Below, piece after piece: positions 13,302 through 47,939 of a stretch of 64,000 bases of DNA; the stretch's first letter is position 1, and each line of letters begins with the position of its first letter. The DNA lies in the IMG/VR virus record IMGVR_UViG_3300020421_003230, positions 58,233 to 122,232 of that record; one strand, written 5' to 3'. The DNA is from a virus. Made by a program: the position numbers and the translations under genes. Under the pieces are notes generated by a model. It saw only the letters and a program-made list of their open reading frames with translations. It was not told where the DNA came from and made no database searches.

Positions 13302-14383
13302 TGGCATACGCACCTACTGGTTCATTTCTAACAATTAATGCTTTAGCATATGCACTTGATGGTAGTACCTCATCTTCAGCTGAAGAAGTAAAAACTAATT
13401 CTGGTTCACATGGTGTGGATATGAGGCAAATTGCAAAACGATATCAAGGAACATTGGGTGTAAATGATGACGACCCTACAGAATTTTCTTTAGGTGATTT
13501 TGGTGTAGATAAATTTCAATCATGTGTAGTAGACCCAACAGGAAGAGTCACAGAATCACCATCAGGTGGAACAACTGTAAACGAGGGAGTTACAAGTATC
13601 TTTTTTGCAAGAGTTCAAAATTGTGGTACACAATGGACAAGTAGTTTAGGTGGTGATGAAAATAATTGGTCATGGACTTTGAATGTTAATGCACCATATA
13701 CAGCAGAAGTTGGTGATATATCTTTTACCAATGCACATGCTAATTGTTCAGCTTCATTTAGTACTATACAAGATGCAGATGGAGATAATGATACCGTATT
13801 AGTATCTTATACATATACGGATGATTACAATGTATCTGCTTCAAATTATAATACTCAAGTTTCCAATACAATAACAATTGTTGATACTTATACACCAGGT
13901 GGTGGTGGTGGTTGTTTTGCTTTAAACACTATGGTGAGTAAAAGTGATGGTACATCTGTACAAATGGATGATTTAGAAATTGGAGATGAAGTTGTTTCTT
14001 TTGGTTACCAGGATATGATAGATGAATCTGATTCTGATGATTATAGGGGATATACAACACATAGTTTATCTACAGGATTTTATACAAGTTCTTTCGTAAA
14101 AGATATGACTTATACTTATTTAGATTCTTATTACCACATAAACAATAGTATTAAGGTTAGTGATTTACATTCATTTTGGGTAAGTGGTTCAGATAATATG
14201 TGGTCATGGAAAACTGCTGATAAGATGTCAGTTGGTGATTGGTTTTTAAGTGATAATAAAAAAGTAGTTCAAGTTAGTTCTTCAATACTTATTAATGATG
14301 AGTTAGAAGCAATGTTTGTAAATGTTGAAGATGTTGATACATTATTTGTAGAGGGGGTTTTAGTACACAATGCAAAAGATTAA
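13301..14383 (+). CDS. Putative virion protein with C-terminal Hint (intein-like) domain
   Basis: GGGGG|CFALNTMVSKSDG...DLEIGDEV (Cys codon 13913), SDLH block-B-like motif, terminal VLVHN followed by AKD-stop. Confidence 0.8.
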   Translation: MAYAPTGSFLTINALAYALDGSTSSSAEEVKTNSGSHGVDMRQIAKRYQGTLGVNDDDPTEFSLGDFGVDKFQSCVVDPTGRVTESPSGGTTVNEGVTSIFFARVQNCGTQWTSSLGGDENNWSWTLNVNAPYTAEVGDISFTNAHANCSASFSTIQDADGDNDTVLVSYTYTDDYNVSASNYNTQVSNTITIVDTYTPGGGGGCFALNTMVSKSDGTSVQMDDLEIGDEVVSFGYQDMIDESDSDDYRGYTTHSLSTGFYTSSFVKDMTYTYLDSYYHINNSIKVSDLHSFWVSGSDNMWSWKTADKMSVGDWFLSDNKKVVQVSSSILINDELEAMFVNVEDVDTLFVEGVLVHNAKD

Positions 14384-15542
14384 AGAATATGATGTTTATT
14401 ATACCACAGGTGGTGGTACTTTAGTTGGTGGAGGTGCCGATGTTTGGGTTAACAATTGGATAAAAGAAATAGCACCGAAATTAAATGTAACACCAAAGTT
14501 GATGATTCATAGAAATCGTCCTAAAGTTGAATGGAGTTTAGAACAACATAAAAAGTTTGAAGATAAAGTAAAGAAAAATCAAAATGTAGGTGAAGGTCGT
14601 AGTGTTCATCAACAAATAAAGAAAAATTTCAAAGAGGCTACTAACCAAGATGTCAATCATACTTGGACAACACCTAAATCATATACACCAGCACCAGAAC
14701 TTGAATACTTTTGGCAAGGTGATGATATGGATGAATTTGAAAAAGTAATGAAAGGTGCTAGAAGAATTCATATTCTACATGGATATTATTCACCACATCG
14801 TTATATTACTGAAAACTTAGATAAAATTCATACCAATGCTGTACATTGTGATGTACATAAAGCAATGATGGCTCCATTTATTTTGGGTTTAGAAAAATCG
14901 TTTCATTTTCATATGGAGAAAAAATGGGAAAATGAAATTGTAGAATCAGCTAAACATCCATTTTGGATTGGTGTATCTAAACCTAATTTAAATAAGAATC
15001 CCAATCATTTACTACACATACCAAACTATTATGAATTTAAACATAATAAAGATGTTACTGATAATAATAGAATTGGTTTTGCTGCAAGAATGGAATCAAG
15101 AAAGTGTCCACATTTTTTAGATGGGTTAAAGGCTGATGTTTATACGGATACAAAAGATATTCAATGGTGGGAAAGAAATGTAAACCTTAATACAAAACTA
15201 TGGAGAAAGTTTGTTTTCAGATGGGAACATCTTGATAGATTTTATCAAAGGGATTGGGGAATATCACACTCGGCACATATTTACGAACCATTTGGATATT
15301 CAATATTTCAAGCGGTTGATTGGGGTAAGGTTCCTATATTGGCACACGATTGGTTACCAAAATATGATTATCCATTTAGAGCTTCTAATTCTGTAGAGTT
15401 TCATGAACAATATAAAAAGTTGTGTGAAGTATCATTAGATGGAAGAAGAAATATATTAAATCCACTTAGAGAATATTTAACTGAAAAGTTTGATAATAAA
15501 GAAGAGTGGGTAGAAAAAATGTTAAAATTATATAATGAGTGA
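14370..15542 (+). CDS. GT-B glycosyltransferase (GT4-like)
   Basis: N-terminal GGADVWV, a GFAARME..K motif and a C-terminal EPFGYSIFQAVDWGKVPI motif. Confidence 0.65.
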   Translation: MQKIKEYDVYYTTGGGTLVGGGADVWVNNWIKEIAPKLNVTPKLMIHRNRPKVEWSLEQHKKFEDKVKKNQNVGEGRSVHQQIKKNFKEATNQDVNHTWTTPKSYTPAPELEYFWQGDDMDEFEKVMKGARRIHILHGYYSPHRYITENLDKIHTNAVHCDVHKAMMAPFILGLEKSFHFHMEKKWENEIVESAKHPFWIGVSKPNLNKNPNHLLHIPNYYEFKHNKDVTDNNRIGFAARMESRKCPHFLDGLKADVYTDTKDIQWWERNVNLNTKLWRKFVFRWEHLDRFYQRDWGISHSAHIYEPFGYSIFQAVDWGKVPILAHDWLPKYDYPFRASNSVEFHEQYKKLCEVSLDGRRNILNPLREYLTEKFDNKEEWVEKMLKLYNE

Positions 15543-15553
15543 TATTTATTAAC

Positions 15554-16600
15554 ATGAGTACAACAGCAAATCAAGACTTATCATTAGGAAAATTAAAGAG
15601 GGCCGTAGATGGAACCGATTCATATACTACCGCCGACACTTCTTTGGGTACTCAAAATGATGGTTCAAGTGAAACAAAGATGTCGGACTTTTCTATTGAT
15701 AGTGTAGATAGTACATCAGGATTTGCATATCTTTGGGAAAGTACTTCTGAAACCTATCAATTAAATTTTACAAATAATGGTGCACTATTTTTATCTAAGA
15801 TAGGAAATAGAACAGAAAACTTTGATTGGTTGAGTAGTGATGCTATAGTTTCAATTAGTGGTGATTATACCGCTACTGCTACAGCTGGTGCTATTTCAAA
15901 TGCCAATACAGGTACTGGTGATGCTACTGATTTCTTACCAGCTGGTACAAATAATGTAGATTTAACAATTCGAGGTAGATATAATGATGATGGACAGACT
16001 GATGGATATAATGACCATGCAACTAATTATAATACATACAGAAATAAAGCAGTTCAGGTTATTGATGCATATGGTGGTTCACCAAGTTGTTTATTAATCG
16101 GTACACCAATCGAGATGGCAGATGGTTCATTTAAAGATGTAGAAGATTTAGAAATAGGTGATTGGGTATTAGCTATGAATATGCCTGGTCAATTGGATGA
16201 GGATGAAAAAGATTGGAGAAGTTCAAGGTTTGAGGATTCTTCTAAATTCACACAACATTCAGCAAGTGTTCAAGATATTAACTTTGATTTTGCACATAAT
16301 TATTGGAATATTAATAATGGTTCTGAATTAATTACAGGTGAACATGAAATGTTATATAAACCAAAAACTGCTGATAGTGAATTTGCTACAAAGTGGATGT
16401 GGCAATTAGTTCCTAATATGAAAGTTGGTGATTTATTGATGGATAAAGATGGGAATGAAGTTAAAATTACTTCATTGGAAAATGTTATAGATAATGATAC
16501 AGGATTTGAAGTTGTACAGATTGATGTTGAACCATTAGATGTTTATTTTGGTAAAACCTTTTTAGTACACAATAAGGGAAGTGATTCGAATCCATTTTAA
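15554..16600 (+). CDS. Second putative virion protein with C-terminal Hint domain
   Basis: GGSPS|CLLIGTPIEMADG..K.VEDLEIGD (Cys codon 16088), ITGEH block B, FLVHN followed by KGSDSNPF. ATG 15554 preferred, just after TATTTATT at 15543-15550. Confidence 0.8.
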   Translation: MSTTANQDLSLGKLKRAVDGTDSYTTADTSLGTQNDGSSETKMSDFSIDSVDSTSGFAYLWESTSETYQLNFTNNGALFLSKIGNRTENFDWLSSDAIVSISGDYTATATAGAISNANTGTGDATDFLPAGTNNVDLTIRGRYNDDGQTDGYNDHATNYNTYRNKAVQVIDAYGGSPSCLLIGTPIEMADGSFKDVEDLEIGDWVLAMNMPGQLDEDEKDWRSSRFEDSSKFTQHSASVQDINFDFAHNYWNINNGSELITGEHEMLYKPKTADSEFATKWMWQLVPNMKVGDLLMDKDGNEVKITSLENVIDNDTGFEVVQIDVEPLDVYFGKTFLVHNKGSDSNPF

Positions 16601-16630
16601 AAAAAATTACATTATCATAGTTTAAAGTTA

Positions 16631-16638
16631 TATTTATA
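16631..16638 (+). promoter_or_regulatory. TATTTATA motif at the start of the main glyco operon
   Basis: Intergenic, 13 nt before ATG 16652. Confidence 0.55.
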
Positions 16639-16651
16639 TATAAGGTTATTT

Positions 16652-17380
16652 ATGAATCGAAACATATTAAATTACGATGCAATAAAATATTTCATCACTA
16701 ATAATGGTGAAATTGGAAAAGTACCATATCGTTGGACACATGGTGCCACGGATTTACATATGGGTGATGGGTTATTAATTTACTCTATCGTACAATTTTA
16801 TAAATCAAAAACTTGTGTGTGCTTAGGAAGTGGTGGTGGATTCATTCCAAGAATAATATCACAGGCAAGACAAGATTTACACCGAGATGGTACATTTACA
16901 GGTAGTGATAAATATGATTATGGTGATATTGGTTCAACATACATTGTTGATGCAATGAATGGAATAAATGGTGAAGTAGATTGGGAAGATAAAGATAGTT
17001 TTCTTAATGTTAATTTTTGGCCACAAGTTATAAAAGAAACTACAGAAGATGCATATTATAATTTCTTTGTAAAGAGAGAAATGAAAATAGATTACTTACA
17101 CATTGATGCTGACCATACACTTGATGGAGTGAAAAAAGATTTTGAGTTATATTCAAATATATTGAGTAAAAATGGAATAGTTACAATACATGATACTGAT
17201 AAAAATTATGTTGATAACTTTTCTGAAATAGAAAATCACAAGGGAGATGATTTATCAGGCCCAAGTGAATTTGTAAAAACAATTAATAAGAAAAGGTTCG
17301 AAGTATTTAATTTTTTTAATCATGGAATTATGAAAGATAAACCAAGTTCAACAGGACTAACGATTGTGAGGAAGAAATGA
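16652..17380 (+). CDS. Class I SAM-dependent methyltransferase (Methyltransf_24-like)
   Basis: VCLGSGGG motif I; IDYLHIDADHT..GVKKDF...NGIVTIHD. Confidence 0.75.
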   Translation: MNRNILNYDAIKYFITNNGEIGKVPYRWTHGATDLHMGDGLLIYSIVQFYKSKTCVCLGSGGGFIPRIISQARQDLHRDGTFTGSDKYDYGDIGSTYIVDAMNGINGEVDWEDKDSFLNVNFWPQVIKETTEDAYYNFFVKREMKIDYLHIDADHTLDGVKKDFELYSNILSKNGIVTIHDTDKNYVDNFSEIENHKGDDLSGPSEFVKTINKKRFEVFNFFNHGIMKDKPSSTGLTIVRKK

Positions 17381-18234
17381 ATTTAGTTACAATAAGCGGA
17401 CATCATGTTAATACAATAGAACATATGTTAAATCATTATAAAGATAAAGTAAATGATATTTTTATAGGAGTACATCGTAATAGTTTATCAGATGAAGATT
17501 ATGATAGGTTAGTTCAGATTACAAATGATATTGGTTGTGGGATTTACAAGGAATATGATTTTCCACTTTATCATTGGACTAATGTTACGGATATTTATAA
17601 TGAAATAAAAATGTTAAAACCAAATGATTGGTGGATTATATCTGATGATGATGAGTTTCATCAATACCAAAATCCATTAAATGATATAGTTGATAATTGT
17701 GAAGATAATGGTTGGAAGTTTGTTACTGGTGCTTTTCTTGATAGAATTTCTATAGATGGTTCTTTGAAAAAAGTTGAACAAAATATTGATATATCAAAAC
17801 AATTTCCACTCGGTGGTATGTTTAGGTTTTTAGTTTCAAAGGCATGTCCTAATAAAGTTGTTATGGCTAAGGGTGATGTACAAGTATCAAGTGGTCAACA
17901 TTATGCTATTATAGATGGTAAAGAAGTTAGAACAAGAGATAACTCTGAGGTAGCATCAGGTATTGACCATCCACAAAGATGTGATTATTTATGGGAGTTT
18001 ACACAAGTACATCATTACAAGTGGGATGAATCATTAAAGAAAAGGTTAGAGCAGATAGTGAGTATTGATGAACAATATACTTATGGTTGGGAATATTCTT
18101 TACTTGTTGATTATCTTAATTATCATGGTGGGTTGATAGATATCAATGATAAAAATTTTAAATTACAAAATATGAATGAATTTCCTAATCACGAATCTTG
18201 GGATTATATTAGGGACATTAGTTTGAGGTTTTAG
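17377..18234 (+). CDS. GT-A glycosyltransferase (GT2-like)
   Basis: MLNHY...DWWIISDDDEFH (DxD), later VHHYKW. Confidence 0.6.
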   Translation: MNLVTISGHHVNTIEHMLNHYKDKVNDIFIGVHRNSLSDEDYDRLVQITNDIGCGIYKEYDFPLYHWTNVTDIYNEIKMLKPNDWWIISDDDEFHQYQNPLNDIVDNCEDNGWKFVTGAFLDRISIDGSLKKVEQNIDISKQFPLGGMFRFLVSKACPNKVVMAKGDVQVSSGQHYAIIDGKEVRTRDNSEVASGIDHPQRCDYLWEFTQVHHYKWDESLKKRLEQIVSIDEQYTYGWEYSLLVDYLNYHGGLIDINDKNFKLQNMNEFPNHESWDYIRDISLRF

Positions 18235-19700
18235 TGGAAGATTATACTTTAGCAATAATAGTACCTTATAGAGACAGAAGAAAAGATTTAGATATCTTTG
18301 TACCACACATGGATGAGTTCTTATCTGATAAGAATATAGATTATACTATATTTGTAATTGAACAAGAAGATGATAGGCCATTCAATCGTGGTAAGTTATT
18401 GAACATTGGATTTGATTTAATAAAAGATGATTTTGATTACTTTTGTTTTCACGATGTTGATATGTTACCAATCAATGATGATTGTGATTATAGTTACGAT
18501 GATGTACCAATCCACTTAGCATCTGAACTTGAATCGTATAATTATAAATTACCTTATGAACAATTTTTTGGTGGAGTGGTTTTATTTACAAAAGAAGATT
18601 TTATTGAAGTTAATGGATATTCAAATGAGTATTGGGGTTATGGTGTAGAAGATTTAGATATGATGTATAGAATAGAAAAGGCTGGATTACAACACGAAGT
18701 TCAATATGATATTTCAGGAGTAACAAAACAATTAAGATATAGTTTGAGTGAAGTAAAAGTATCCAATTCATTAACATCAAAAGAAATAAAATATATAACA
18801 TTAGATGGTAGTTCATCATTAGTTATAAAAAATGGTAATCCAAAATTATTAAACTTAACTAACAATTCATATACACTTAGTGTGTGGGTTAGACCACATG
18901 ATAAAGGTGAACGAATGCAGGGTATCATATCAAGACCAGGTCATCATTCAGGTATATTTTATAACACATCTACTAAAATGATGGAGAGTAAATTTCAATC
19001 ACAAGTTTGGGATAAGAATAAATTAAATTATATTGTAGACAGAAGTGTTAAGAGTAATGAGTGGTATTTTGTAACAATGACCTTAGATACTAAAACTAAA
19101 AAAATAAAAATGTATGTTAATGGTGTACAAGTTATTGATAAATTTAATAGACAAGAATTAGAAGAAGAGTTGTTTGATTATGAAACTCGTTCTTGGTTCA
19201 TTGGTAATTCATACGCAAATAAAAATCCTTTTATTGGAGATATTGCTGATGTTAAGATTTATGATAAGGTGTTAACAGATGAAGAAGTAGAACAAGAATA
19301 TTTTGGTGGGATAGATATAAAACCATTAGTGAATATAGATTTTTCTAAAGGATATAGAAACACTTACTTTGATGTAACAAGTAACCATTGTAACTTAATG
19401 ATTTCTACTGATAATATTTTACCATACAAAACAGAAACTATAAAACTTGGGAATGAATATCCAATACCAGTTAGAAAAAATGGTAGATACAAATGTTTAA
19501 AACATAAAGGTGATAATCAGATTTTAGAAAAATATGATTCGTTTGACCCTGATATTGAAGCAAACTTAGAAATATTTTTTGAAGACATAAGAACTGATGA
19601 GGTAGATTATAAAACTATTGGATTAAATAATTTAAGTTATAAAATACTTGATAGAGAAACTTTTCAAGATAGGCACGAATGGGTAAAGGTAGTAACATGA
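18234..19700 (+). CDS. GT7 beta-1,4-galactosyltransferase-like protein with inserted LamG/ConA domain
   Basis: AIIVPYRDR, FNRGKLLNIG, FHDVDMLP, GYSNEYWGYGVED; LamG-like YTLSVWV...WYFVTMT...MYVNG...FIGDIADVKIYDKVLT. Confidence 0.85.
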   Translation: MEDYTLAIIVPYRDRRKDLDIFVPHMDEFLSDKNIDYTIFVIEQEDDRPFNRGKLLNIGFDLIKDDFDYFCFHDVDMLPINDDCDYSYDDVPIHLASELESYNYKLPYEQFFGGVVLFTKEDFIEVNGYSNEYWGYGVEDLDMMYRIEKAGLQHEVQYDISGVTKQLRYSLSEVKVSNSLTSKEIKYITLDGSSSLVIKNGNPKLLNLTNNSYTLSVWVRPHDKGERMQGIISRPGHHSGIFYNTSTKMMESKFQSQVWDKNKLNYIVDRSVKSNEWYFVTMTLDTKTKKIKMYVNGVQVIDKFNRQELEEELFDYETRSWFIGNSYANKNPFIGDIADVKIYDKVLTDEEVEQEYFGGIDIKPLVNIDFSKGYRNTYFDVTSNHCNLMISTDNILPYKTETIKLGNEYPIPVRKNGRYKCLKHKGDNQILEKYDSFDPDIEANLEIFFEDIRTDEVDYKTIGLNNLSYKILDRETFQDRHEWVKVVT

Positions 19701-19999
19701 TATTTGAATTACTAAAAGATAATGTAGAACAATTAGAAGCATTTGATGAAAAATTAAAACAGGCAATAGAATCTTTACCAAAAGAACAATTGTGGCCTGT
19801 ATTTATAATGATACTCGAAGAACTATATTCACAACAAAAAGGTGAATCTCATGTACCGAAGATTGTAGATAGATTAGGTGATATAGATAAAATACTTGAT
19901 GAGATTTGGTGGGAGGGGCCAGAGGGTGTAGTGTATAAAAGTGTATTAGATTTTTATTGGAATAGAATTAAAAAACATAAGGAGTTAGAAAATGAGTGA
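19697..19999 (+). CDS. Hypothetical protein
   Basis: ATGA-coupled ORF within the operon; no recognisable motif. Confidence 0.6.
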   Translation: MIFELLKDNVEQLEAFDEKLKQAIESLPKEQLWPVFIMILEELYSQQKGESHVPKIVDRLGDIDKILDEIWWEGPEGVVYKSVLDFYWNRIKKHKELENE

Positions 20000-20222
20000 A
20001 AAAAACAATTACGAAGAAAGAGCCACTAAGGCACTTGAAAGTATTGCAGATTCATTTCAAACCATAGAGGATTCAGTACTTGATGTTGATTTTCCTATGT
20101 GGAGTGAAAGATTAGAATGGTACTTAAATGAATTCTTCAAAATTGCACAACAAAGAACTATTGGTAGTTCGAATAGACCAACTGTAGATAGAGAACGAAA
20201 TATTGATGAAACAAAAGAATAA
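19992..20222 (+). CDS. Hypothetical protein
   Basis: 76 aa, AAGGAG upstream, overlaps both neighbours. Confidence 0.6.
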   Translation: MSEKNNYEERATKALESIADSFQTIEDSVLDVDFPMWSERLEWYLNEFFKIAQQRTIGSSNRPTVDRERNIDETKE

Positions 20223-39496: not shown

Positions 39497-39510
39497 TATT
39501 TATATTTATA
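39497..39510 (+). promoter_or_regulatory. Two overlapping TATTTATA motifs
   Basis: 39497-39504 and 39503-39510, in the only sizeable gap inside the island. Confidence 0.55.
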
Positions 39511-39585: not shown

Positions 39586-40266
39586 ATGGAATTTTTAAAC
39601 AAACATTCGTTTGATACGAGTGAGTATAAATTTAAGGAGCTCTTAGAGTCTTACTTTGGTTGTAGGTTAGAGAAACTACACGAACACATAGATTTGCCTA
39701 AGATACTACCACCAGACCATACAATATGGGATGATGCTTATAAATTTATTGTAAATGATAAAGAGTTTCTTGATACTTGGTATTCTTTCATTGAAAATGT
39801 AATAAAACCAATATTGGGTGAAGATACAATTGTTTTACAAAAACTACCAAGTATAAAATTTCATCCACCAAAAACCACTTATCAATATTTACTCAAAAAA
39901 TCAAATTGGCACCGAGATGGTGAATCACCTTACTTACATCCTAAATTTGAAACTAATTTGTGGATGCCTTTAATGGATATAGATGAACACAATGCTATGT
40001 ATTGTTTACATGAGAGAGAAAAGAAACCACAATTGTTAAAGTATGGGGAGATATTACATTTTAGTGGTAACACAATGTATCATGGTTCTAAAGAATATTC
40101 AAATTCAAAAAATACACGAGTTAGTTTAGATTTTAGAGGTTGTAAGTTCTCTGATTATAATGTTGATTTAATGAAACCAATTCCAATATATAGTCATTTT
40201 ACAAAAGATAAACCAAAGTTACAAAATGAGTGGTTTACGATAGGGAACTATTATGAAAAATTTTGA
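39586..40266 (+). CDS. 2OG-Fe(II)/PhyH-like oxygenase (StrG-like)
   Basis: WHRD...NLWMPL...HG...TRVSLDFR (HxD...H...R). Confidence 0.7.
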   Translation: MEFLNKHSFDTSEYKFKELLESYFGCRLEKLHEHIDLPKILPPDHTIWDDAYKFIVNDKEFLDTWYSFIENVIKPILGEDTIVLQKLPSIKFHPPKTTYQYLLKKSNWHRDGESPYLHPKFETNLWMPLMDIDEHNAMYCLHEREKKPQLLKYGEILHFSGNTMYHGSKEYSNSKNTRVSLDFRGCKFSDYNVDLMKPIPIYSHFTKDKPKLQNEWFTIGNYYEKF

Positions 40267-41332
40267 TATATTTTTTAATTCAAAAGCTGGTAAAGTGGAA
40301 AGGTTACGATATCAATTAAATGAAACTGAACAAGTAAATAAGTTTTTAAAAGTATGGAAACTTGCAGATGATTCTTTTTCTGAACAACGATTGAATTGGT
40401 TTGGAAAAACTGAATCACTTGGTAGTGCAAAACGAAAGTTAGATAGTTTGAACGATACCATAAAAAAATTAAATGATACAGGTAATGTTAAGATATCAGA
40501 AAAGTTATTAGTAAATCACATAGAATTAGATTCATCACAATTATGGAAGTTAAATGAACTACATGAAATTTTTGAGTTGTGGACTTTAGAAACATCTACA
40601 TCCACTTCTAATATTGACCATAGAGATATCATTGGTGAACAGATAGATGGATTTGAACACAATGGTGAATCAGATGAATATATGATATCTTTATTTGAAC
40701 ATATAAATTGGTATGTGCATGAGTTGGAGTGGTACTTAAGTGGTTCATTGGATGACCCAAACTATAAAGATTATTTTTATGTTGTAAGAAATAGTTGGAG
40801 TAGATTAGTAGGTGAAGAGTGGGTTCCTAATTCAGATGAACTTACTGATGATGATTATAATCAGATGGAACGAGTTAATATGTTTGGGAAGATATATTTA
40901 GATTTTGCTACCGTAGGAAAGGATATGTCTCATGCATTTCGTACTCAAGATAAAACACTTATAGAACGAAAGAATATTACACAACAAAAGTTTTTTAGGC
41001 CATCAGTAAATATAAAGTTTGTAAATTCAGATTATGTAGAACCACCAAGTGATTTTGATGGTATAAATTTTATTGCACCAAATGATTTTACCGAAAGAGA
41101 TTATAAGGTTTATTATGATTGGTGTGAAAAAAATGGTGCTTCTAAGTGTGGATATGATTACAAATCACCATCATATAATTTAGGTAGAATTTCACTTGGA
41201 GAAACAACAGATTTAACTTTAGATAATTTTGGTGATTTTTTTGATGAGTTTGATAGTGTACATCATGTAGAGGTTCCAAACTTTTCTTCACCAAAAAAAT
41301 ATATTTCAATATCAGATAAAGGTTCACATTAA
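40253..41332 (+). CDS. Hypothetical protein
   Basis: 359-aa coupled ORF; no function recognised. Confidence 0.6.
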   Translation: MKNFDIFFNSKAGKVERLRYQLNETEQVNKFLKVWKLADDSFSEQRLNWFGKTESLGSAKRKLDSLNDTIKKLNDTGNVKISEKLLVNHIELDSSQLWKLNELHEIFELWTLETSTSTSNIDHRDIIGEQIDGFEHNGESDEYMISLFEHINWYVHELEWYLSGSLDDPNYKDYFYVVRNSWSRLVGEEWVPNSDELTDDDYNQMERVNMFGKIYLDFATVGKDMSHAFRTQDKTLIERKNITQQKFFRPSVNIKFVNSDYVEPPSDFDGINFIAPNDFTERDYKVYYDWCEKNGASKCGYDYKSPSYNLGRISLGETTDLTLDNFGDFFDEFDSVHHVEVPNFSSPKKYISISDKGSH

Positions 41333-43290
41333 TGAATAAACAAAGATTATACTTAGTAGAAGCATCTTATGTATTTAAACCATCCAATATGGAAAATGGT
41401 CAAGTTAGATTACCATACTCTACAGGATTACTTTGGTCACATTGTGAGTTAAATAAAAAGATATCTGATAACTATGAACTATCTGATATTCTTTTTGTAA
41501 GAACTTCACCACAAGAATTTTTAGATGAAATTCATGAACCTGATATTATTGGTTTTTCTTGTTTTGTTTGGAATTGGGATTTTAATAAAAAATTAGCTAA
41601 AAAGGTAAAACAAAAATATCCTAATTGTACTATTATATTTGGTGGCCAAATGCAACCAACAGCAGAATCTATTGATTGGAATAAAGATTTTTTTAAAGAA
41701 CATCCTTATGTTGATATATTAGTTCATGGAGAGGGTGAATTGATTTTTGAAAATATACTCTTAGAAAATTTAAAAAATAAAAATTGGGATAATGTAAATG
41801 GTATAACATATAAAATTGGTAATGGTTATAAAACTACAGATAAGATGATTAGGGTTAATGATATTGATTCTATGCCAAGTCCATATTTAAATGGATTGAT
41901 GGATAGGTTTGTAAAACAATATAGAGATGATTACAAATTCACAACAACAATTGAATCTGTACGAGGTTGTCCTTATAGATGTACTTATTGTGAAATAGGA
42001 GATTTATACTTTCAAAAAATACATGCTCAGAGTTTAGAAAAATTAACAAAAGAAATACAATGGATGTCAGATAATGAAGTTGTTTATATTGATAATGCAG
42101 ATTCTAACTTTGGATTATATTTTGATAGAGATTTAGAGATTGCTCATATTCTTGTTGATTTAAAAAAGAGAACAGGATATCCTGAAACATTTAGAAACGA
42201 TTGGGCAAAGGATAAGGGTGAAAAGTTAATTCCTATTGCACAAGTATTACAGACTGGTGATATGAACAAAGGATTAACAATGGCATTACAATCTATGAAT
42301 GAAGATACATTGGCTGCTATCAAGAGAAGAAATGTTATTTCTAAAAAAGCTGGTATACAAGATTTCTTAGAAAAGTGTAATAATATAAACCTACCTGTGT
42401 ATGCTGAATTTATTCTTGGGTTACCTGAAGAAACTTTAGATTCATTTAAAGATGCTATTTATAAATTAATAAACTACGGACAACATAATTATGTAGGTGT
42501 TTATCCATTGAGTATATTACCTAATACACCATTTGGTAATCCAGAGTATGTTGGTAAGTATGGTTTAGAAACTATTAAAACAAAAGGTTTGTATTATCAT
42601 ATTACAGAAGAAGAAATAGAAGAAAATGAATCAGAACAGATATGTGTTTCTACATCTACTATGCCGTATGATGATATGATGATGGCATACGATTTTAGAT
42701 GGTTTATTATGATTACACACTTTTTTGGATTAGTACAAGTTGTATCAAGATTTTTAACTTCTACTGGCCGTGTTGAGTATAGAGAATTTTATGAAGATAT
42801 GTGGAATCATTTTAAAGATTCCGATACAATATTGGGTACTGAAATAAAAGAGTATCAAGATGCAATAAGAAAAGTTTTTACAGAAGAACGATATTGGGGT
42901 TGGTTTTTTGAGGAATCAAATTATACTTGGGAGTTTGATGAGGGTTCATTTATAAAATTAGTTGATAATATGGATGTGTTATATGATGAAATAAAAGAGT
43001 ATTTACAAAAATACTTTGATGATAAAAAAACATTAGATTCAGTTTTAGATTATCAAAAAGAATATATCGTGAATGTAGATAAACAATATCCAATCAAAAA
43101 AGAATTTGATATAAATATAAAAGATGTTATTGAAAAAAACGAACCTGTAAAAAATGGTGGTTATGTTTATGAGTTTGATACGAACTCTAAATGTAAAAAC
43201 TATAACAATAATAAATTTGATTGGTGTAGAGAATTATTTTGGTGGGGACGAAAAGAGGGTAGATATAAAACGATGATTGAGGAGAAGTAG
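41332..43290 (+). CDS. Cobalamin-binding radical SAM protein
   Basis: N-terminal B12-domain motifs PDIIGFSCFVWN, IFGG, VHGEGE; RGCPYRCTYC; ADSNFG; ILGLPEET. Confidence 0.88.
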   Translation: MNKQRLYLVEASYVFKPSNMENGQVRLPYSTGLLWSHCELNKKISDNYELSDILFVRTSPQEFLDEIHEPDIIGFSCFVWNWDFNKKLAKKVKQKYPNCTIIFGGQMQPTAESIDWNKDFFKEHPYVDILVHGEGELIFENILLENLKNKNWDNVNGITYKIGNGYKTTDKMIRVNDIDSMPSPYLNGLMDRFVKQYRDDYKFTTTIESVRGCPYRCTYCEIGDLYFQKIHAQSLEKLTKEIQWMSDNEVVYIDNADSNFGLYFDRDLEIAHILVDLKKRTGYPETFRNDWAKDKGEKLIPIAQVLQTGDMNKGLTMALQSMNEDTLAAIKRRNVISKKAGIQDFLEKCNNINLPVYAEFILGLPEETLDSFKDAIYKLINYGQHNYVGVYPLSILPNTPFGNPEYVGKYGLETIKTKGLYYHITEEEIEENESEQICVSTSTMPYDDMMMAYDFRWFIMITHFFGLVQVVSRFLTSTGRVEYREFYEDMWNHFKDSDTILGTEIKEYQDAIRKVFTEERYWGWFFEESNYTWEFDEGSFIKLVDNMDVLYDEIKEYLQKYFDDKKTLDSVLDYQKEYIVNVDKQYPIKKEFDINIKDVIEKNEPVKNGGYVYEFDTNSKCKNYNNNKFDWCRELFWWGRKEGRYKTMIEEK

Positions 43291-43292
43291 AG

Positions 43293-44012
43293 ATGTTGTG
43301 GAAGAGGAAACAATGGAATGATAGTTTAGAACAAGGGATACCACATATAGTTGTGGATAATTTCTTTGATGACGAAACTGCACATAAATTATATGATGAG
43401 TGTGTAAATACTGCACCAAGAGGTGGATGGACAAATTTTACAAGAGCAGGTTCTAATATGGAAGAATATAATGATATGATTTATTGTAAGAAAGGACATA
43501 CTATAACTTATGATTTAATGCATAGTGGTGAAATGTTATTTGAGTTAGAACAATTAACTGATATGGTAGGGTTGATGCCAGACCCACATTTGGTCGGTGC
43601 AGGGTACTCACGATTCAAACCAGGTAGTGATTTAAAACCACACTATGATTTTAATTGGAATGATAGGTTAAGATTGCATAGAAGATTAAGTGCTTTTGTT
43701 TATTTAACACCAGATTGGAAAGATGAGTATGGTGGACACATTCAGTTTTGGGATGGTAATCCTAATGAAACAAAGAAGGCAAAAATAGTAAAAGAAATTG
43801 CACCACAATTTAACAGATTAGTATTGTTCGGTAATTTAGTAAAGGGGCCAGTTCATTCGGTACGACCAGTCAAGGCACCTAATGGATTACAAAGAACTTC
43901 AATTAGGTGGTTTTATTATCAAAGTACTTCTGAGTATAATCCTAATGACCCACCACATAAAAGTGTTTACAAAACAAATGAGTATACACATACAAAACTT
44001 TATAATGATTGA
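43293..44012 (+). CDS. 2OG-Fe(II) oxygenase (P4H/Oxy_3-like)
   Basis: PHIVVDNF, HYDFN, YLTPDW..YGG, PQFNRLVLF, HSV, R. Confidence 0.85.
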   Translation: MLWKRKQWNDSLEQGIPHIVVDNFFDDETAHKLYDECVNTAPRGGWTNFTRAGSNMEEYNDMIYCKKGHTITYDLMHSGEMLFELEQLTDMVGLMPDPHLVGAGYSRFKPGSDLKPHYDFNWNDRLRLHRRLSAFVYLTPDWKDEYGGHIQFWDGNPNETKKAKIVKEIAPQFNRLVLFGNLVKGPVHSVRPVKAPNGLQRTSIRWFYYQSTSEYNPNDPPHKSVYKTNEYTHTKLYND

Positions 44013-44715
44013 TATTACTGAAAATATAAAAAGACTTTACGATTTGTATTCTCAAAAAATGCATGTCATTGAGGATTTAAAGTTAGTCGTTAGTGTACAA
44101 TTAGGATTTGGTCAAGTTACTTTTGAAAAGTGGATACAAGATACAGATTACAAAGTAACAAGGTTATCTGAACTTGGTACATGGGATGATGTAGAAAAAT
44201 GGATAAAAGATTATAAATGGCTATTTATAATTAAGGATACAATGAATGCATATTATTCTTCGTTGAATCATATAATTCATGAATCACCTATATTACCTGA
44301 TGGAACTAATGCTACATTTTTAAGAAGTTCTATTTTAAAGTTAAAAAATGAATCATCAAATGAATTAGAGTTTTATCATAATATGCTTAATGTATTCTTA
44401 TATGATTACTGGTCAGGTGAATGTCATTCTCGTTTACTTTCATATAGGATTCCTTTTTGGTTAAAAGAATTATCTGGTGAAGAGGTTGATATACACACTA
44501 TAGATATTGATAATTTTTATAAATCATTTGGTAAGTTAGTTGATTATAAATTTGTTAAACAGAACAAGTTGGATAAAGATGAAAAGAAAGTTTTAGATAA
44601 AATTTTAAAAACATATAACTTTAATCAATTACAAACAAGGTTCTTATTAGATACCATTACATTTGAGAAAAACTTAAGGCAATATGAAATAAAAGATATA
44701 AAGGAAATATTATGA
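44005..44715 (+). CDS. Hypothetical protein
   Basis: In-frame ATG 44005 overlaps the upstream gene end; only a weak sulfotransferase-like FIIKD..NAYYS segment. Confidence 0.5.
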   Translation: MIDITENIKRLYDLYSQKMHVIEDLKLVVSVQLGFGQVTFEKWIQDTDYKVTRLSELGTWDDVEKWIKDYKWLFIIKDTMNAYYSSLNHIIHESPILPDGTNATFLRSSILKLKNESSNELEFYHNMLNVFLYDYWSGECHSRLLSYRIPFWLKELSGEEVDIHTIDIDNFYKSFGKLVDYKFVKQNKLDKDEKKVLDKILKTYNFNQLQTRFLLDTITFEKNLRQYEIKDIKEIL

Positions 44716-44813: not shown

Positions 44814-44822
44814 GAGAAAAAA

Positions 44823-46061
44823 ATGAATATAGGTTTTATAGGATTAGGAAAATTAGGATTACCATGTGCTCTTGCGGTAGAATCAAGAGGACATAGTGTA
44901 ATTGGTTATGACCCATCAGAACAAGTTAAAGATATTATTGATACAAAGAAACTTCAGTATCAAGAGATATGGGCACAAGATTATTTAGATAAAACAAAAA
45001 TAAAAATTAAATCAATAGAAGATGTGGTAAAACATTCTGAAATAATTTTTGTACCTATACAAACACCACATGGTGAAAAGTTTGAGGGTTCAACACGAAT
45101 ACCTAATGAAAGAAAAGATTTTGATTACACTTTTTTAAAAAAGGGTATTGAGGATTTATCAAACGAAATAGAAAAACAAGGTGAGGATAAAATAGTTATT
45201 GTGATATCTACAGTCTTACCTGGTACAATTCGTAGAGAGATAAAACCATTATTAGGTGAACACACAAAGTTATGTTACAATCCATTCTTTATTGCTATGG
45301 GTACAACCATGAGAGATTTTCTTAAACCAGAGATTGTATTGTTTGGTGTAGAAGATAAGAGAGCTGCAGAAAAAGCGAAACAATTTTATAGAACATTACA
45401 TCACCAACCATTTTACGAAACCACAATTGAAAATGCAGAATTAATCAAAGTTGTATATAATACTTTTATTGGAACTAAACTTGCATTTGTAAACACAATT
45501 ATGGAAGTGTGTCATAAGTTACCAAATACAAATGTAGATGATGTAACTAATGCACTAAAGATGTGTGATGAGAGAATTATATCAGATAGATACTTGAGTG
45601 GTGGTATGGGAGATGGTGGTGGTTGTCATCCACGAGATAACATTGCATTAAGTTGGTTAAGTGATGAACTAAAGGTTAGGTTTAATTGGTTTGATAATAT
45701 AATGATGCAACGAGAAGTTCAAACTGAATGGTTAGCGGATGTAATCGAGGGTAATCGTAGAAACAAAGATACTCTTTATATATTAGGTAAATCATTTAAA
45801 CCTGAAACTAACATACAGACAGGTAGTCCATCAATACTATTGAAAACTATATACGAAGAAAGACATGATAGAGAAGTTATTATGTATGACCCTTATGTTG
45901 ATGATATAGATGATTTTGATTTTAAACTCGGTGTTTATTTTATAGGAACAAAACATCCTGATTTTGTTGATTTCAAGTTTCCACATGATTCTACCATTAT
46001 AGACCCATGGCGATACATACCAGATAAAGATGGTTGTCGAGTAATTAGATTAGGAGAGTAA
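44823..46061 (+). CDS. UDP-glucose/GDP-mannose dehydrogenase family protein
   Basis: GLGKLG Rossmann motif, STVLPGT, AELIKVVYN, GGGCHPRD, LGKSFKP. Confidence 0.9.
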   Translation: MNIGFIGLGKLGLPCALAVESRGHSVIGYDPSEQVKDIIDTKKLQYQEIWAQDYLDKTKIKIKSIEDVVKHSEIIFVPIQTPHGEKFEGSTRIPNERKDFDYTFLKKGIEDLSNEIEKQGEDKIVIVISTVLPGTIRREIKPLLGEHTKLCYNPFFIAMGTTMRDFLKPEIVLFGVEDKRAAEKAKQFYRTLHHQPFYETTIENAELIKVVYNTFIGTKLAFVNTIMEVCHKLPNTNVDDVTNALKMCDERIISDRYLSGGMGDGGGCHPRDNIALSWLSDELKVRFNWFDNIMMQREVQTEWLADVIEGNRRNKDTLYILGKSFKPETNIQTGSPSILLKTIYEERHDREVIMYDPYVDDIDDFDFKLGVYFIGTKHPDFVDFKFPHDSTIIDPWRYIPDKDGCRVIRLGE

Positions 46062-46062
46062 C

Positions 46063-46956
46063 ATGAAATTATTTACATTCGGAGATAGTTGGACAGAAGG
46101 CTCTGGTATGTTTGGTGCCGAAACTACAGAGGAAATAAATCAAGAAGCAACAAAATATGCTTGGCCAGTACACTTATCAAAAAAACTTAATTTTGATTTA
46201 AAAAATTATGCAAAATCTGGTGATGGTAATGAACAGATAATGAATAAAGTTATTGATAAGTTTTCGGAAATATCAAAAGATGATATTACTATTGTTATGT
46301 GGTCGGATATGGGTAGGGTTTTGAATCCAGCTAATCCATCTCAAGCTTCACTAAATTGTTTTTCTGTTCCAACAAAAAATCTTGTTTATCAAAAACATAT
46401 AGGTGGTTATCATCAAGATTATATTAAGTTTTTAGAACATTACTCACTTTTAACTTTACCTACCTTGAATGATATGAAATCGAAATACTTAAATATGATT
46501 TTATTGGTACAAGAGTTATTTAAATCACATGGAAAAAAATTATATCAAGTAGAAGCATTCTCTAATTATTGGGATACCGATTGTAGAAAATGGTATAGTA
46601 CACTTGTGCCTGCATTCGATTTCTCGTATCACTTAAATGATGTTCCTGATGGTTTACAAAATTGGTTACGAAGAACAATTGGTGATTCAAATCCTTTGGA
46701 TGATTTTACAGAGTTAGTATCTATATTAAAAAACTCAGAAAAGTATCGAGATGATGGTGTATTTCGTAAAACTCAGAATTTTGATTCTAAATTAAATTTA
46801 GTTGATGATACATTTTGGTGGTTTAGAGAAAAATGTGTTGCACAAGTTTTACCACATCAAAAGAATTGGGCAGCTGATAATAATTACCACCATCCAGGTA
46901 AAGTAGGACATAAAAATATAGGAGATTTATTTTATGATAAACTTAAATCAGTTTAA
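46063..46956 (+). CDS. SGNH hydrolase-like protein
   Basis: FGDSWTEG, NYAKSGDGN, HHPGKVGH. Confidence 0.65.
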   Translation: MKLFTFGDSWTEGSGMFGAETTEEINQEATKYAWPVHLSKKLNFDLKNYAKSGDGNEQIMNKVIDKFSEISKDDITIVMWSDMGRVLNPANPSQASLNCFSVPTKNLVYQKHIGGYHQDYIKFLEHYSLLTLPTLNDMKSKYLNMILLVQELFKSHGKKLYQVEAFSNYWDTDCRKWYSTLVPAFDFSYHLNDVPDGLQNWLRRTIGDSNPLDDFTELVSILKNSEKYRDDGVFRKTQNFDSKLNLVDDTFWWFREKCVAQVLPHQKNWAADNNYHHPGKVGHKNIGDLFYDKLKSV

Positions 46957-47548
46957 AGATGCTTGGGATGCAGTAGAATTATTTGAAGAAAGAGTTTCTG
47001 AATATGCTGGTTCAAAGTATGCAGTTTCAACAGATAATTGTACAGATGCATTATTCTTGTGTTTGAAATATTTTAATCAACCAAGAACTATTACGATTCC
47101 TAAAAAAACTTATTTATCAGTTCCACAAACAATTATACATGCTGGTTATGGTGTAATGTTTGATGATATAGAGTGGAGTGGAGTTTATCAATTAAAACCA
47201 TTTCCAATATGGGATGGTGCAACAAGATTCAAAAAAAATATGTATAAAGGTGGGTATCATTGTTTATCATTTCATATCAAAAAACACATACCAATTGGTA
47301 AAGGTGGAATGATACTAACAGATGATATTGAATTTAGAGATTGGGCTCGTAAGGCTAGATATGAGGGTAGGAATTATAAAGTTAAGTATGAAGATGATAG
47401 ACCAGATATGATAGGTTGGAATATGTATATGTATCCTGAGCAGGCAGTTTTAGGATTAGAGTTATTTGATATACATACAGAAAAACCAGATTGTGGGGGT
47501 AGTGATACTTATTATGATTTAAGTACTCTATCGATATGGGATGACTGA
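46934..47548 (+). CDS. Short DegT/DnrJ/EryC1/StrS PLP aminotransferase
   Basis: FEERVSEYAG..YAVSTDNCTDALFL, SFHIKKHIPIGKGGMILTDD, GWNMYM; only 204 aa. Confidence 0.8.
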   Translation: MINLNQFKDAWDAVELFEERVSEYAGSKYAVSTDNCTDALFLCLKYFNQPRTITIPKKTYLSVPQTIIHAGYGVMFDDIEWSGVYQLKPFPIWDGATRFKKNMYKGGYHCLSFHIKKHIPIGKGGMILTDDIEFRDWARKARYEGRNYKVKYEDDRPDMIGWNMYMYPEQAVLGLELFDIHTEKPDCGGSDTYYDLSTLSIWDD

Positions 47549-47939
47549 ATTAGAGTTCTTTAAAGAACTATTTCCACCTACTGATGAATATCTTGATGTA
47601 AATTCTTTTATCTCACATGAGGGTGATATATTAGAATATCCTATATTAAACAATGAATTAAGAAACAAAGAAGAGGGGCCTGTTTGTGAGTGTGTTGGTG
47701 AGAATACCAATAAGGCCTTGTTTAAATACTTTCAATCTATAATCAAACAAGGAGTTCAATTACCAATATATATAAACAATAAAAATCAAGTTATGGATGG
47801 TTGGCATAGGTTGCATGCTTATTATTATATGGGAAAAACCAAAATACCAGTTTATCGTAATAAGTTATGGAGAAATCATGGATTTTGTTGGAAAAAAGGT
47901 TTAGAAGGTAGGAGAAGATTAAGATTAAAAACTTGGTAG
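47541..47939 (+). CDS. ParB/sulfiredoxin-like domain protein
   Basis: SIIKQGVQLPIYI....VMDGWHRLHA. Confidence 0.65.
   Translation: MTELEFFKELFPPTDEYLDVNSFISHEGDILEYPILNNELRNKEEGPVCECVGENTNKALFKYFQSIIKQGVQLPIYINNKNQVMDGWHRLHAYYYMGKTKIPVYRNKLWRNHGFCWKKGLEGRRRLRLKTW

Follow-up and report, generated by a model that had tools for sequence, protein, structure and literature searches.

An enzyme island beside a giant fibre gene in an uncultured marine phage may encode the making of a glycan for virion proteins

What might a bacterial virus build with some thirty closely packed genes, many of them for sugar enzymes, lodged beside the gene for a giant tail fibre, and to what would the product be attached? 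The question is raised by the 64,000-nucleotide stretch analysed here (the window; IMG/VR virus record IMGVR_UViG_3300020421_003230, positions 58,233 to 122,232), in which an island runs from 14370 to 47939 in window coordinates. An earlier note, made from the sequence alone, had read this island as a late, cytoplasmic factory for a glycan coat on virion proteins, with DNA hypermodification as the main alternative. The enzymes and the cytoplasmic site of that reading are supported by our analysis, while the virion coat depends on gene position and analogy. Our tentative preference, to which we give a little less than an even chance, is that the island is a phage-encoded glycan factory and that the glycan is attached to virion proteins, most likely to the fibre set.

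The window forms the final 64 kb of one viral contig of 122,232 bp, which CheckV puts at 67% completeness and whose called genes lie nearly all on the plus strand. The contig is that of an uncultured, distant T4-like marine phage. Scans with PHROG and Pfam placed baseplate wedge genes, a primase and an SbcC-like nuclease upstream of the window, and a terminase, a T4-type portal and a prohead protease within it; identity of the portal is 51-53% with its counterparts in Microcystis phage Mel-JY01 and Flavobacterium phage immuto, and near 25% with T4-type portals. Neither of these two cultured relatives has a comparable island ahead of its terminase genes. As had been claimed, the island comprises more than 30 tightly coupled genes: we counted 33 open reading frames (ORFs) between 14370 and 47939, all on the plus strand and mostly overlapping their neighbour by a few bases, with three gaps longer than 15 nt (16601-16651, 39471-39585 and 44716-44822). 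The G+C content is 0.27-0.31 in the island against 0.31-0.40 in its flanks. Its placing between tail and head genes was roughly right, since a 4342-aa fibre and intein-like fibre-side proteins are encoded upstream; on the downstream side, however, a kinase-like gene, an endolysin and a CCA-enzyme fusion come first, and only then the terminase, portal and protease.

The glycosyltransferase genes and candidates of the island, with the evidence for each, are as follows.

14370..15542, plus strand: GT4-like (GT-B) glycosyltransferase candidate, the first island gene (atlas similarity, synteny)
17377..18234, plus strand: conserved protein, possibly GT2-like (one source name)
18234..19700, plus strand: GT7 (beta4Gal/GalNAc-T-like) enzyme 1, with a LamG/ConA-like insert (Pfam, PDB)
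20203..21594, plus strand: GT7-LamG enzyme 2 (Pfam, paralogy, DVD motif)
21591..23015, plus strand: GT7 enzyme 3, a full-length paralog, 28% identical over ~500 aa (Pfam, paralogy)
29455-30411, 30396-31601 and 31598-33010, plus strand: three paralogs of a viral GT-B family (paralogy, fold)
33575-34294, 34281-35204, 35204-36373 and 36366-37343, plus strand: four further paralogs of the same family (paralogy)

An estimate of about 13 glycosyltransferases of four types thus comes down to 10 to 12, of which 10 were verified and two are leads only. All three GT7 proteins matched the Pfam models Glyco_transf_7N/7C (E 1e-16 to 7e-25; 58-88 bits against gathering thresholds of 23-27) and have a DVD metal/donor motif at residues 74-79. 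The product of 18234 also matched PDB chains of beta4GalT1 and beta4GalT7 at E 1e-37; its segment 'ywgygvedld' was aligned to 'yWGWGGEDDD', and the pattern WGxGxEDxD matched this protein only among the three. On this sequence evidence we class the trio as predicted members of CAZy family GT7. It can be seen from the alignments of 18234 that the LamG/ConA-like domain is an insertion inside the GT7 catalytic domain and not a C-terminal fusion: residues 459-476 align to the C-terminal strand of beta4GalT1, so that the catalytic domain resumes past the insert, and residues 415-473 align to the 'GRYKMIKH...GLN' C-terminal segment of the nematode beta4GalNAcT (bre-4), to which the catalytic core is 36-45% identical. 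The middle domain of GT7 enzyme 3 gave no LamG hit in Pfam. Lying beside the acceptor side of the catalytic domain, the lectin-like insert would be a built-in acceptor-recognition module. Metagenomes hold at least 1,379 GT7-LamG proteins of ~485-540 aa, and a search of 50,697 deposited phage records returned one partial LamG hit only; the number in metagenomes, with the likeness to animal enzymes, suggests a possible old exchange of genes between phages and animals.

The seven GT-B paralogs had no match in Pfam, NCBIfam or PHROG, and because their profile found nothing among PDB sequences (best E 1.1) their fold was taken from a model. The AlphaFold2 (AF2) model of the family, built on 67 sequences, had a predicted local distance difference test (pLDDT) score of 85.7 and a predicted template modelling (pTM) score of 0.89. 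Foldseek matched it to 69 PDB chains at E<=0.001, all of those listed being GT-B enzymes and BshA, T4 BGT, GlgM and TarM among them, and VIA-align gave Z scores of 10-11.8 over 255-306 residues, with a Rickettsia glycosyltransferase, T4 BGT/AGT, an alpha1,3-fucosyltransferase and PimB' all tied. We conclude from the model that the seven paralogs are predicted glycosyltransferases of GT-B fold. A narrower assignment to the GT10 fucosyltransferases was rejected: there was no Glyco_transf_10 match, the atlas lead stood at 0.80, and the alpha1,3-fucosyltransferase (Z 9.6-10.9) was tied with other enzymes. Run against a library of 1.84 billion proteins, the seven-paralog profile recovered 13,641 representatives (E<=0.001), many of the members having two copies in one protein of 700-850 aa, and none of the 39 library homologs scanned had a glycosyltransferase Pfam domain. 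The atlas clusters nearest to the family were labelled 100% viral, and tblastn with two of the paralogs against the 50,697 deposited phage genomes gave no match.

For the product of 14370 there was no Pfam hit, and a single-sequence PDB search found nothing below E 0.4; its closest named atlas clusters are viral Glycos_transf_1 and AGT (0.97), and an EPFGY..F.A.D.GK.PI block is kept in all seven homologs. The 17377 family has 827 members, and one homolog, 42% identical, is named 'glycosyltransferase family 2' in its NCBI source. No Pfam domain was found on 17377 itself or among the 120 homologs listed of the 827, and a single-sequence PDB search again gave nothing below E 0.4. A relationship to GT7 was tried and rejected, hhalign against the GT7 catalytic profile giving a probability of 0.1%, and the GT-A nature of this protein is for that reason unproven.

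The sugar-making and tailoring enzymes that accompany the glycosyltransferases are listed next.

16652..17380, plus strand: class I S-adenosylmethionine (SAM) methyltransferase, Methyltransf_24 (Pfam E 4e-10)
23016..24587, plus strand: N-twitch radical SAM protein 1 (NF033640, 325.7 bits against a cut-off of 170)
24550..25395, plus strand: SGNH-like protein (blastp paralogy to 46063, E 2e-5 over 101 aa; no Pfam hit)
25395-26906, 26903-28270 and 28263-29483, plus strand: N-twitch radical SAM proteins 2-4 (NF033640, 297-359 bits against a cut-off of 170)
37327..38406, plus strand: amidinotransferase of the StrB1/SxtG/AGAT family (PDB 1bwd, E 7e-77, residues 5-358)
39586..40266, plus strand: probable 2-oxoglutarate (2OG)-Fe(II) oxygenase of 'sporadic carbohydrate cluster' type, a weak match (TIGR04324, E 9e-12, 45 bits against 150)
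41332..43290, plus strand: B12-binding radical SAM protein (Pfam B12-binding and Radical_SAM)
43293..44012, plus strand: 2OG-Fe(II) oxygenase of prolyl-hydroxylase type (2OG-FeII_Oxy_3, E 2e-17)
44823..46061, plus strand: UDP-sugar 6-dehydrogenase (Pfam; PHROG E 2e-82; catalytic GGGCHPRD kept)
46063..46956, plus strand: SGNH/GDSL hydrolase or acyl-transfer enzyme (Lipase_GDSL, 25.7 bits against a cut-off of 23.6)
46934..47548, plus strand: shortened DegT/DnrJ-type protein, 204 aa (Pfam E 5e-21, two stretches)

The five radical SAM proteins proposed earlier were recovered as four of the N_Twi_rSAM family and one that is B12-binding, with the CxxxCxxC motif intact in all five. The four cover positions 1-3 to 389-397 of the 398 in the NF033640 model, and each has a single CxxxCxxC within residues 135-176 and four or five cysteines upstream, including a CxxC pair. 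The product of 41332 matched the KedN5 subfamily at E 3e-72, yet with 244 bits against a cut-off of 700, and is probably a C-methyltransferase. Likewise, the methyltransferase (Methyltransf_24 at 16652), the nucleotide-sugar dehydrogenase (44823, by Pfam and PHROG) and the amidinotransferase all stood. For the last of these, at 37327, homology to StrB1 is full-length, the catalytic GGPHC is kept and matches to SxtG, HsvA and AGAT had E values of 1e-44 to 1e-55. Three other claims held in part. One of the two 2OG oxygenases, at 43293, is firm, and the other, at 39586, is weak and falls below the TIGR04324 cut-off; one of the two SGNH proteins, at 46063, lies narrowly above the Pfam cut-off, and the other, at 24550, is placed only through its paralogy to the first. 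The aminotransferase does belong to the DegT family, but in a shortened form that covers positions 23-94 and ~167-211 only of the Pfam model; this short form is kept in relatives, and occurs also in cyanophage S-SCSM2R and in 18-21 of the 80 distant loci described below, the homologs being of 198-259 aa.

No flippase, polymerase or multi-pass membrane protein had been seen in the island, and this was borne out by a 19-residue hydropathy scan of three islands (that of the window and those of two relatives), in which no protein had more than one hydrophobic 19-mer. The products of the island are soluble by hydropathy and no initiating phosphoglycosyl transferase was found in the contig or in a complete relative, which upholds the claim that the product is made in the cytoplasm.

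Immediately upstream of the island lies the candidate acceptor of the glycan, followed by two intein-like proteins whose genes flank the first glycosyltransferase gene.

273..13301, plus strand: giant tail fibre, 4342 aa (Pfam, composition)
13301..14383, plus strand: fibre-side protein 1, with a serine/threonine (S/T)-rich N-domain and a BIL/Hint domain (weak Pfam Hint match, paralogy to 15539)
15539..16600, plus strand: fibre-side protein 2, with an N-domain (residues 1-183) and a C-terminal BIL/Hint domain (AF2 model, alignment)

The fibre is S/T-rich and contains a CBM_5_12 domain and, at 2626-3402 aa, five short runs of the collagen-like pattern G-[AS]-D; its C-terminal chaperone is of the Peptidase_S74 type. 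Its N- and C-termini are conserved in the fibres of six related contigs; the orthologous fibres in relatives are of 565 to 2187 aa. In fibre-side protein 1 the Hint domain begins at GGGGG|C and terminates in HN, and in fibre-side protein 2 the Hint part contains Cys184, T-x-x-H269 and H344-N345, with C184, T189, H269, H344 and N345 invariant in all seven aligned sequences. No nucleophile follows the Asn in these domains. The Pfam Hint hits of both proteins were below cut-off, and it is from the model of the Hint part of 15539 that VIA-align found Tetrahymena BIL2 (Z 18.7, root-mean-square deviation 2.1, 145 residues aligned), a bacterial BIL (Z 18.0) and Hedgehog (Z 16.9). We therefore regard both C-termini as predicted BIL/Hint autoprocessing domains. 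The Tetrahymena BIL2 match is to a domain from a ubiquitin-like conjugation locus. The same Hint part matches the C-termini of proteins named 'virion structural' or 'tail fibre' in Erwinia jumbo phages, and the N-domains of the two proteins are S/T-rich, with 24% S+T. BIL/Hint-type domains cleave or transfer the part upstream of them through a thioester. By this sequence likeness, the upstream S/T-rich domain of ~183 aa could be released or ligated via a thioester, and the two proteins may be parts of the fibre that cleave themselves or, on a bolder view, decorations that ligate themselves.

The linkage of these genes to the glycosyltransferases was examined in related viruses. Six IMG/VR contigs with a GT7-LamG homolog all had the same order, namely fibre, 14370-like glycosyltransferase, two or three GT7-LamG genes and N-twitch radical SAM genes, and in all six the 14370-like gene came directly after the fibre or Hint genes. 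Intein-like genes were present in four of the six loci and the methyltransferase and 17377-like genes in three. Between the first two GT7-LamG genes an ORF of 70-88 aa was conserved across the six loci; its representative here is the following.

19992..20222, plus strand: acidic 76-aa protein between GT7 genes 1 and 2 (kept in 6/6 related loci, 40-61% identity)

Few of the neighbouring enzymes are as well conserved as this small protein, for which a role as scaffold or carrier is possible; an overlapping ORF, 19679-19999, is less conserved. One of the relatives, G004, is a 216,422-bp genome (100% complete by CheckV) with a terminase 73% identical to that of the window. The fibre-to-terminase stretch spans 46-50 kb in G004 and in G002, a fragment, and has the same place and the same core families: identities are 70-72% for the UDP-sugar dehydrogenase, 56-60% for the B12 radical SAM protein, 39-41% for the amidinotransferase and 46-47% for the short DegT protein. 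Each has GT-B paralogs (five or six) and N-twitch radical SAM genes (four or five), and many of the other island genes differ.

The island had also been said to share a sequence motif with the structural genes, and we confirmed this for TATTTATA, which is enriched between genes. The window has 15 copies against 7.0 expected under a first-order model (maximum 15 in 100 simulations). Over the whole contig 9 of the 23 copies are intergenic, although intergenic DNA makes up 4.8%, and the motif occurs in five of the seven gaps so examined in the window against three of 31 in the first 58 kb of the contig. The copies that concern us are these.

236: TATTTATA, before the fibre gene
16631..16638, plus strand: TATTTATA, promoter-like, 21 nt ahead of the methyltransferase gene
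39497..39510, plus strand: two overlapping copies (39497, 39503) in the 115-nt gap ahead of 39586
47945..47952, plus strand: TATTTATA, ahead of the AAA_33 kinase-like gene, at the downstream island edge
56143: TATTTATA, before the gene preceding the terminase

In G004, 20 of 42 copies fell in the 4.2% of DNA that is intergenic, compared with none of 25 for TATAAATA. Among the 19 listed sites in that genome, those in structural regions precede the tail sheath (then tube), the head-tail adaptor, the gene preceding the major head protein, the gene preceding the terminase and the gene past the portal, and those in the island precede an intein-like gene, GT7 gene 1 and an RmlC-like gene. By its sequence context TATTTATA is a real promoter-like signal common to structural and island genes, and because in G004 it precedes sheath, adaptor, capsid-operon, terminase-operon and island genes, late co-expression is plausible. 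The claim that the product is made late has this sequence support, and the timing itself would follow from it. As a separate observation, reverse-complementing the T4 late promoter word TATAAATA gives exactly TATTTATA, which nevertheless lies on the coding strand upstream of genes. The T4 word itself was not enriched in the window (4 copies against ~9 expected), sigma-70-like sites were not above shuffles (114 against 137 and 106 against 119), and terminator-like hairpins were few and mostly within genes. Two metatranscriptome libraries contained short contigs of 203-442 nt, of which, among the 16 listed, five show 1-5 letter differences to the window and the others 8-27; these are a weak hint of transcription, DNA carry-over being possible.

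To see how far the enzyme set extends beyond this lineage, two peptide patterns from 12 library GT-B members were used to collect 582 IMG/VR stretches, of which 532 encode a relative; 80 loci were kept, their 1,396 ORFs were clustered and 51 cluster representatives were scanned. The GT-B family was found in 79 of the 80 loci (163 ORFs) and N-twitch-like radical SAM proteins in 46 (94 ORFs). UDP-sugar dehydrogenase occurred in 37-41 loci, amidinotransferase in 19-20, short DegT in 18-21, B12 radical SAM proteins in 14-20, NAD epimerase in 18, SGNH-like proteins in 17, carbamoyltransferase in 10 and hexapeptide acyltransferase in nine. In the island, then, a fibre-side module particular to the lineage (14370 to 23015) is combined with a kit of GT-B, radical SAM, dehydrogenase and amidinotransferase genes that is widespread among viruses, and because the radical SAM proteins are steadily paired with sugar enzymes across the kit loci, we think that they edit sugars. 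Amidinotransferase homologs 25-31% identical to that of the window lie amid at least five radical SAM genes in Campylobacter myophages. In one of these, phage CPt10 (NC_027996.1, 73874-79429), the homolog stands among radical SAM genes, and a PAP2 gene is also near that cluster. To our knowledge, no function has been assigned to date to this amidinotransferase/radical SAM cluster of the Campylobacter myophages.

Put together, the genes suggest a pathway in which soluble enzymes would act in the cytoplasm of the infected cell. Nucleotide sugars would be oxidised by the UDP-sugar dehydrogenase and aminated, possibly by the shortened DegT-like protein, and the amine would be converted to a guanidino group by the StrB1-type amidinotransferase. 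The four N-twitch radical SAM proteins, the B12 radical SAM C-methylase, the 2OG oxygenases, the methyltransferase and the SGNH enzymes would then edit the sugars, and the 10-12 glycosyltransferases would assemble the chain, which would be made together with the structural proteins. Either the giant S/T-rich fibre or the N-domains of the intein-like pair, or both, all encoded just upstream, would serve as acceptor of the chain. The order of the steps, the late timing and the acceptor are what we infer from the gene set. A bolder version, which we think improbable, holds that the fibres are coated with a guanidino-bearing, C-methylated oligosaccharide, that the lectin insert of GT7 reads the acceptor (compare alpha-lactalbumin retuning beta4GalT1), that the BIL proteins ligate glycosylated S/T-rich N-domains onto the virion, enzyme-free, like Tetrahymena BUBL, and that the system is widespread in the ocean (532 IMG/VR contigs, >13,000 GT-B clusters).

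Attachment to the virion is our best guess, and is backed by the linkage to the fibre, the glycosyltransferase gene (14370) that sits between two fibre-side protein genes, the motif common to structural genes, the lectin-like insert on the acceptor side, in an enzyme family active on the glycans of glycoproteins, and the precedent of giant viruses. Several points weigh on the other side. The acceptor is proposed from gene position and by analogy; the fibre synteny is seen within one phage lineage, and so may reflect shared ancestry rather than function; and among the 80 distant kit loci a match to this fibre lay within 10 kb in one, and GT7-LamG in one to three. The late timing would follow from the motif alone, and in G004 the listed TATTTATA sites also lie ahead of Hsp20, a nuclease region and two distant glycosyltransferase genes. 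The N-domain of 15539 (residues 1-182) is below pLDDT 35 in an AF2 model from a 7-sequence alignment, for which disorder and under-sampling are both possible explanations. The T4 DNA glucosyltransferases rank with the best structural matches of the GT-B family, level with many other GT-B enzymes, and comparable islands have been read, in the portions of the papers available, as modifying the host surface (PMC7029224, PMC12801897).

That published reading, offered for the fibre-side glycosyltransferase/radical SAM islands of pelagimyophages (PMC7029224) and for S-SCSM2R (PMC12801897), leads to an explanation that we hold to be unlikely if still deserving of serious weight: the soluble enzymes would build or alter a lipid-linked glycan of the host (O-antigen, capsule or S-layer), using the initiator, flippase and ligase of the host, and would so change the cell surface while infection proceeds, for example to block superinfection or grazing. 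The cytoplasmic glycosyltransferases of O-antigen pathways are soluble too, and elsewhere the contig encodes a PAP2 phosphatase, a sulfotransferase and a cytidylyltransferase. However, the three islands scanned by hydropathy have no multi-pass membrane protein, no Bac_transf was found in any of the five records searched, the complete relative included, and no initiating transferase, flippase or polymerase was seen, WecA-type, Wzx and Wzy Pfam models not having been searched one by one. These negatives have to be read with the caveat that a phage could borrow the initiator and membrane parts of its host. In addition, the island has its promoter-like motif in common with structural genes and does not lie in the early region, and a 30-gene pathway followed by late export would leave little time for any benefit. 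An improbable alternative would dispense with a macromolecular acceptor altogether: the island would make a soluble compound, a pseudo-oligosaccharide or something aminoglycoside-like, that is set free inside the infected cell or out of it and, for instance, inhibits host functions or competing phages. The tailoring set is indeed aminoglycoside-like (StrB1-type amidinotransferase, DegT-type protein, twitch radical SAM and B12 radical SAM methylase) and carbamoyltransferases occur in 10 of the 80 related viral loci, but 10-12 glycosyltransferases far exceed the known aminoglycoside pathways, no cyclitol synthase or exporter is among the annotated genes of the island, and the lectin-inserted GT7 enzymes suggest a macromolecular acceptor. 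The S-SCSM2R homologs are called 'antibiotic synthesis genes' by the authors in the available part of PMC12801897.

If the acceptor is a macromolecule, it could also be other than the virion or the host envelope. We consider it very unlikely that a host protein or RNA is glycosylated or edited, or that the radical SAM and 2OG enzymes act on the fibre polypeptides themselves (cross-links, hydroxylation). It is true that Twitch/SPASM radical SAM enzymes and prolyl-hydroxylase-type 2OG oxygenases often use peptides, that the contig also carries an Asp/Asn beta-hydroxylase and that the island adjoins the 1391-aa CCA-enzyme fusion and the kinase-like gene; against this, no precursor-peptide-like gene was recognised, and the pairing of N-twitch radical SAM proteins with GT-B in 46 of 80 loci and with UDP-sugar dehydrogenase in 37-41, independently of this fibre, which matched in one locus, points to sugar substrates. 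Barely any credence is left for decoration of modified phage bases by the glycosyltransferases as a defence against restriction. The GT-B model has the T4 beta- and alpha-glucosyltransferases among its top matches (Foldseek E 6e-6; Z 11.7 and 11.0), but these are tied with dozens of unrelated GT-B enzymes, and 14370 lies near an AGT-family atlas cluster (0.97). The homologous amidinotransferases amid radical SAM genes in Campylobacter phages also speak for it, since the DNA of Campylobacter phages is hypermodified. Poly-glycosylated DNA exists, and in the part of the source available the glycosylation of 5-hydroxymethylcytosine, 5-hydroxymethyluracil and even 5-hydroxycytosine starts from a thymidylate-synthase homolog (PMC13326640, 2026). 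Such a homolog (PF00303), a C5 methylase (PF00145) and TGT/DpdA (PF01702) were absent from all five records searched, including the complete relative, in searches whose positive controls rang in 10, 9 and 14 of 14 genomes, respectively; in a genome search for Tet_JBP no control rang. None of the 51 cluster representatives from the 80 loci was a thymidylate-synthase homolog either. We conclude that DNA hypermodification is weakened as the main alternative, and that a glycan on the virion, with the giant fibre as candidate acceptor, remains the reading to which we lean.

The remaining ORFs of the island are these.

33007..33594, plus strand: 195-aa protein, no family match
38406..39470, plus strand: 354-aa protein, no family match; nothing below E 0.4 in a PDB search
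40253..41332, plus strand: 359-aa protein, no family match; nothing below E 0.4 in a PDB search
43882..44715, plus strand: protein without an assigned family; its called start overlaps the 43293 gene by 131 nt
47541..47939, plus strand: last island ORF, weakly ParB-like (PHROG E 7e-5)

Because the called start of 43882 sits in the doubtful 131-nt overlap, the hydrophobic N-terminus of its product may be an artefact. The 47541 ORF had no blastp match in the islands of G004 or G002. Downstream of the island, an AAA_33/zeta-type kinase-like gene (47979-48848) precedes a gene for a 1391-aa protein (50872-55047) whose residues 1 to ~390 are a nucleotidyltransferase of CCA-adding/poly(A) polymerase type, the other ~1000 aa being without assignment. 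Relatives keep both genes, at 55-70% identity, and the two products may work together in RNA repair. Outside the window, contig positions 438-7461 hold in a row genes for a SAM synthetase, a PNP_UDP_1 protein (methylthioadenosine/S-adenosylhomocysteine nucleosidase-like), a sulfotransferase, a CobT-like and a CobS-like (AAA_5) protein, for which supply and clean-up for the five radical SAM enzymes and the B12-dependent methylase is a plausible role. Also outside it are an N6/N4 DNA methylase gene followed by that for an Asp/Asn beta-hydroxylase-domain protein (contig 22409-25355), and a PAP2-family phosphatase gene (contig 52415-53041).

The island stretch 36001-46000 was present in 20 of 24 listed sequencing runs, from 14 studies dated 2014-2024; in 10 of these runs half or more of the sampled words were present, and three are possible sources of the contig. 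Contigs from two non-source DNA runs match kb-sized pieces of the window with 0-4 differences. Should the glycan prove to sit on virions, the marine phages of this group would wear a coat of sugar, with consequences for how the particles recognise hosts, stick, decay and are grazed, matters central to the ecology of marine viruses. Among the enzymes of the island are several large predicted families, the N-twitch radical SAM proteins, the virus-only GT-B family and the lectin-inserted GT7 enzymes. A guanidino sugar in a viral glycan would, if true, be new chemistry, and a fibre glycan ligated by BIL domains would be a form of virion decoration new to bacterial viruses.

Among known systems, mycobacteriophages are reportedly close in gene setting: Freeman et al. 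(2023) are said to have described glycosyltransferase genes beside structural genes whose products O-glycosylate capsid and tail proteins, reportedly with one to few glycosyltransferases and no tailoring enzymes, whereas the present island, known from its genes alone, has 10-12 glycosyltransferases and ~15 tailoring enzymes. In its chemistry the island resembles aminoglycoside tailoring, through the full-length StrB1 homology and the twitch radical SAM, B12 radical SAM and DegT-type families held in common; BtrN, GenK and TobZ would be parallels among the aminoglycoside enzymes. It differs from those pathways in its many more glycosyltransferases and its viral, structural setting. The T4 DNA beta- and alpha-glucosyltransferases are, like the seven paralogs, small phage GT-B enzymes and are top structural matches of that family, but the match is at the level of the fold (8-12% identity) and no homolog of the hydroxymethylase that produces their acceptor is present here.

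Chloroviruses (PBCV-1 Vp54) and Mimivirus glycosylate their capsid or fibres with their own enzymes (PMC4691112, the available portion), and the likeness extends to virus-encoded nucleotide-sugar enzymes, soluble glycosyltransferases, rare amino sugars, a gene content that varies between strains and independence from the host secretory pathway. Those viruses, however, are eukaryotic and their glycans have been solved by nuclear magnetic resonance and mass spectrometry, while the present glycan would be known from genes alone; N-twitch radical SAM proteins, an amidinotransferase and GT7-LamG are not among the families described in that portion of the paper. Cyanophage S-SCSM2R, as presented in the available part of PMC12801897, has a similarly compact one-strand cluster with an amidinotransferase (37% identical), a short DegT-like protein (195 aa, annotated AHBA synthase), a radical SAM protein, 2OG oxygenases and glycosyltransferases. 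That cluster is of ~7 kb against 33 kb here, with one small radical SAM protein against four N-twitch and one B12 protein; its glycosyltransferase families differ, and in the stretch seen it is not beside fibre genes. Similar in arrangement is the host recognition cluster of pelagimyophages and cyanomyophages (Zaragoza-Solas et al., 2020, PMC7029224), likewise a large hypervariable island in the structural region beside tail-fibre genes, rich in glycosyltransferases and with a UDP-glucose dehydrogenase and radical SAM cassettes that vary between relatives. GT8 is the commonest family there, and modification of the host O-chain was proposed without test. The phage studied here is of another lineage, and has GT7-LamG, Pfam-less GT-B and intein-like fibre-side proteins, not GT8. 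Fibre-side islands of glycosyltransferase and radical SAM genes are thus already annotated in print; what is lineage-specific here is the GT7-LamG trio together with the interleaved intein-like proteins.

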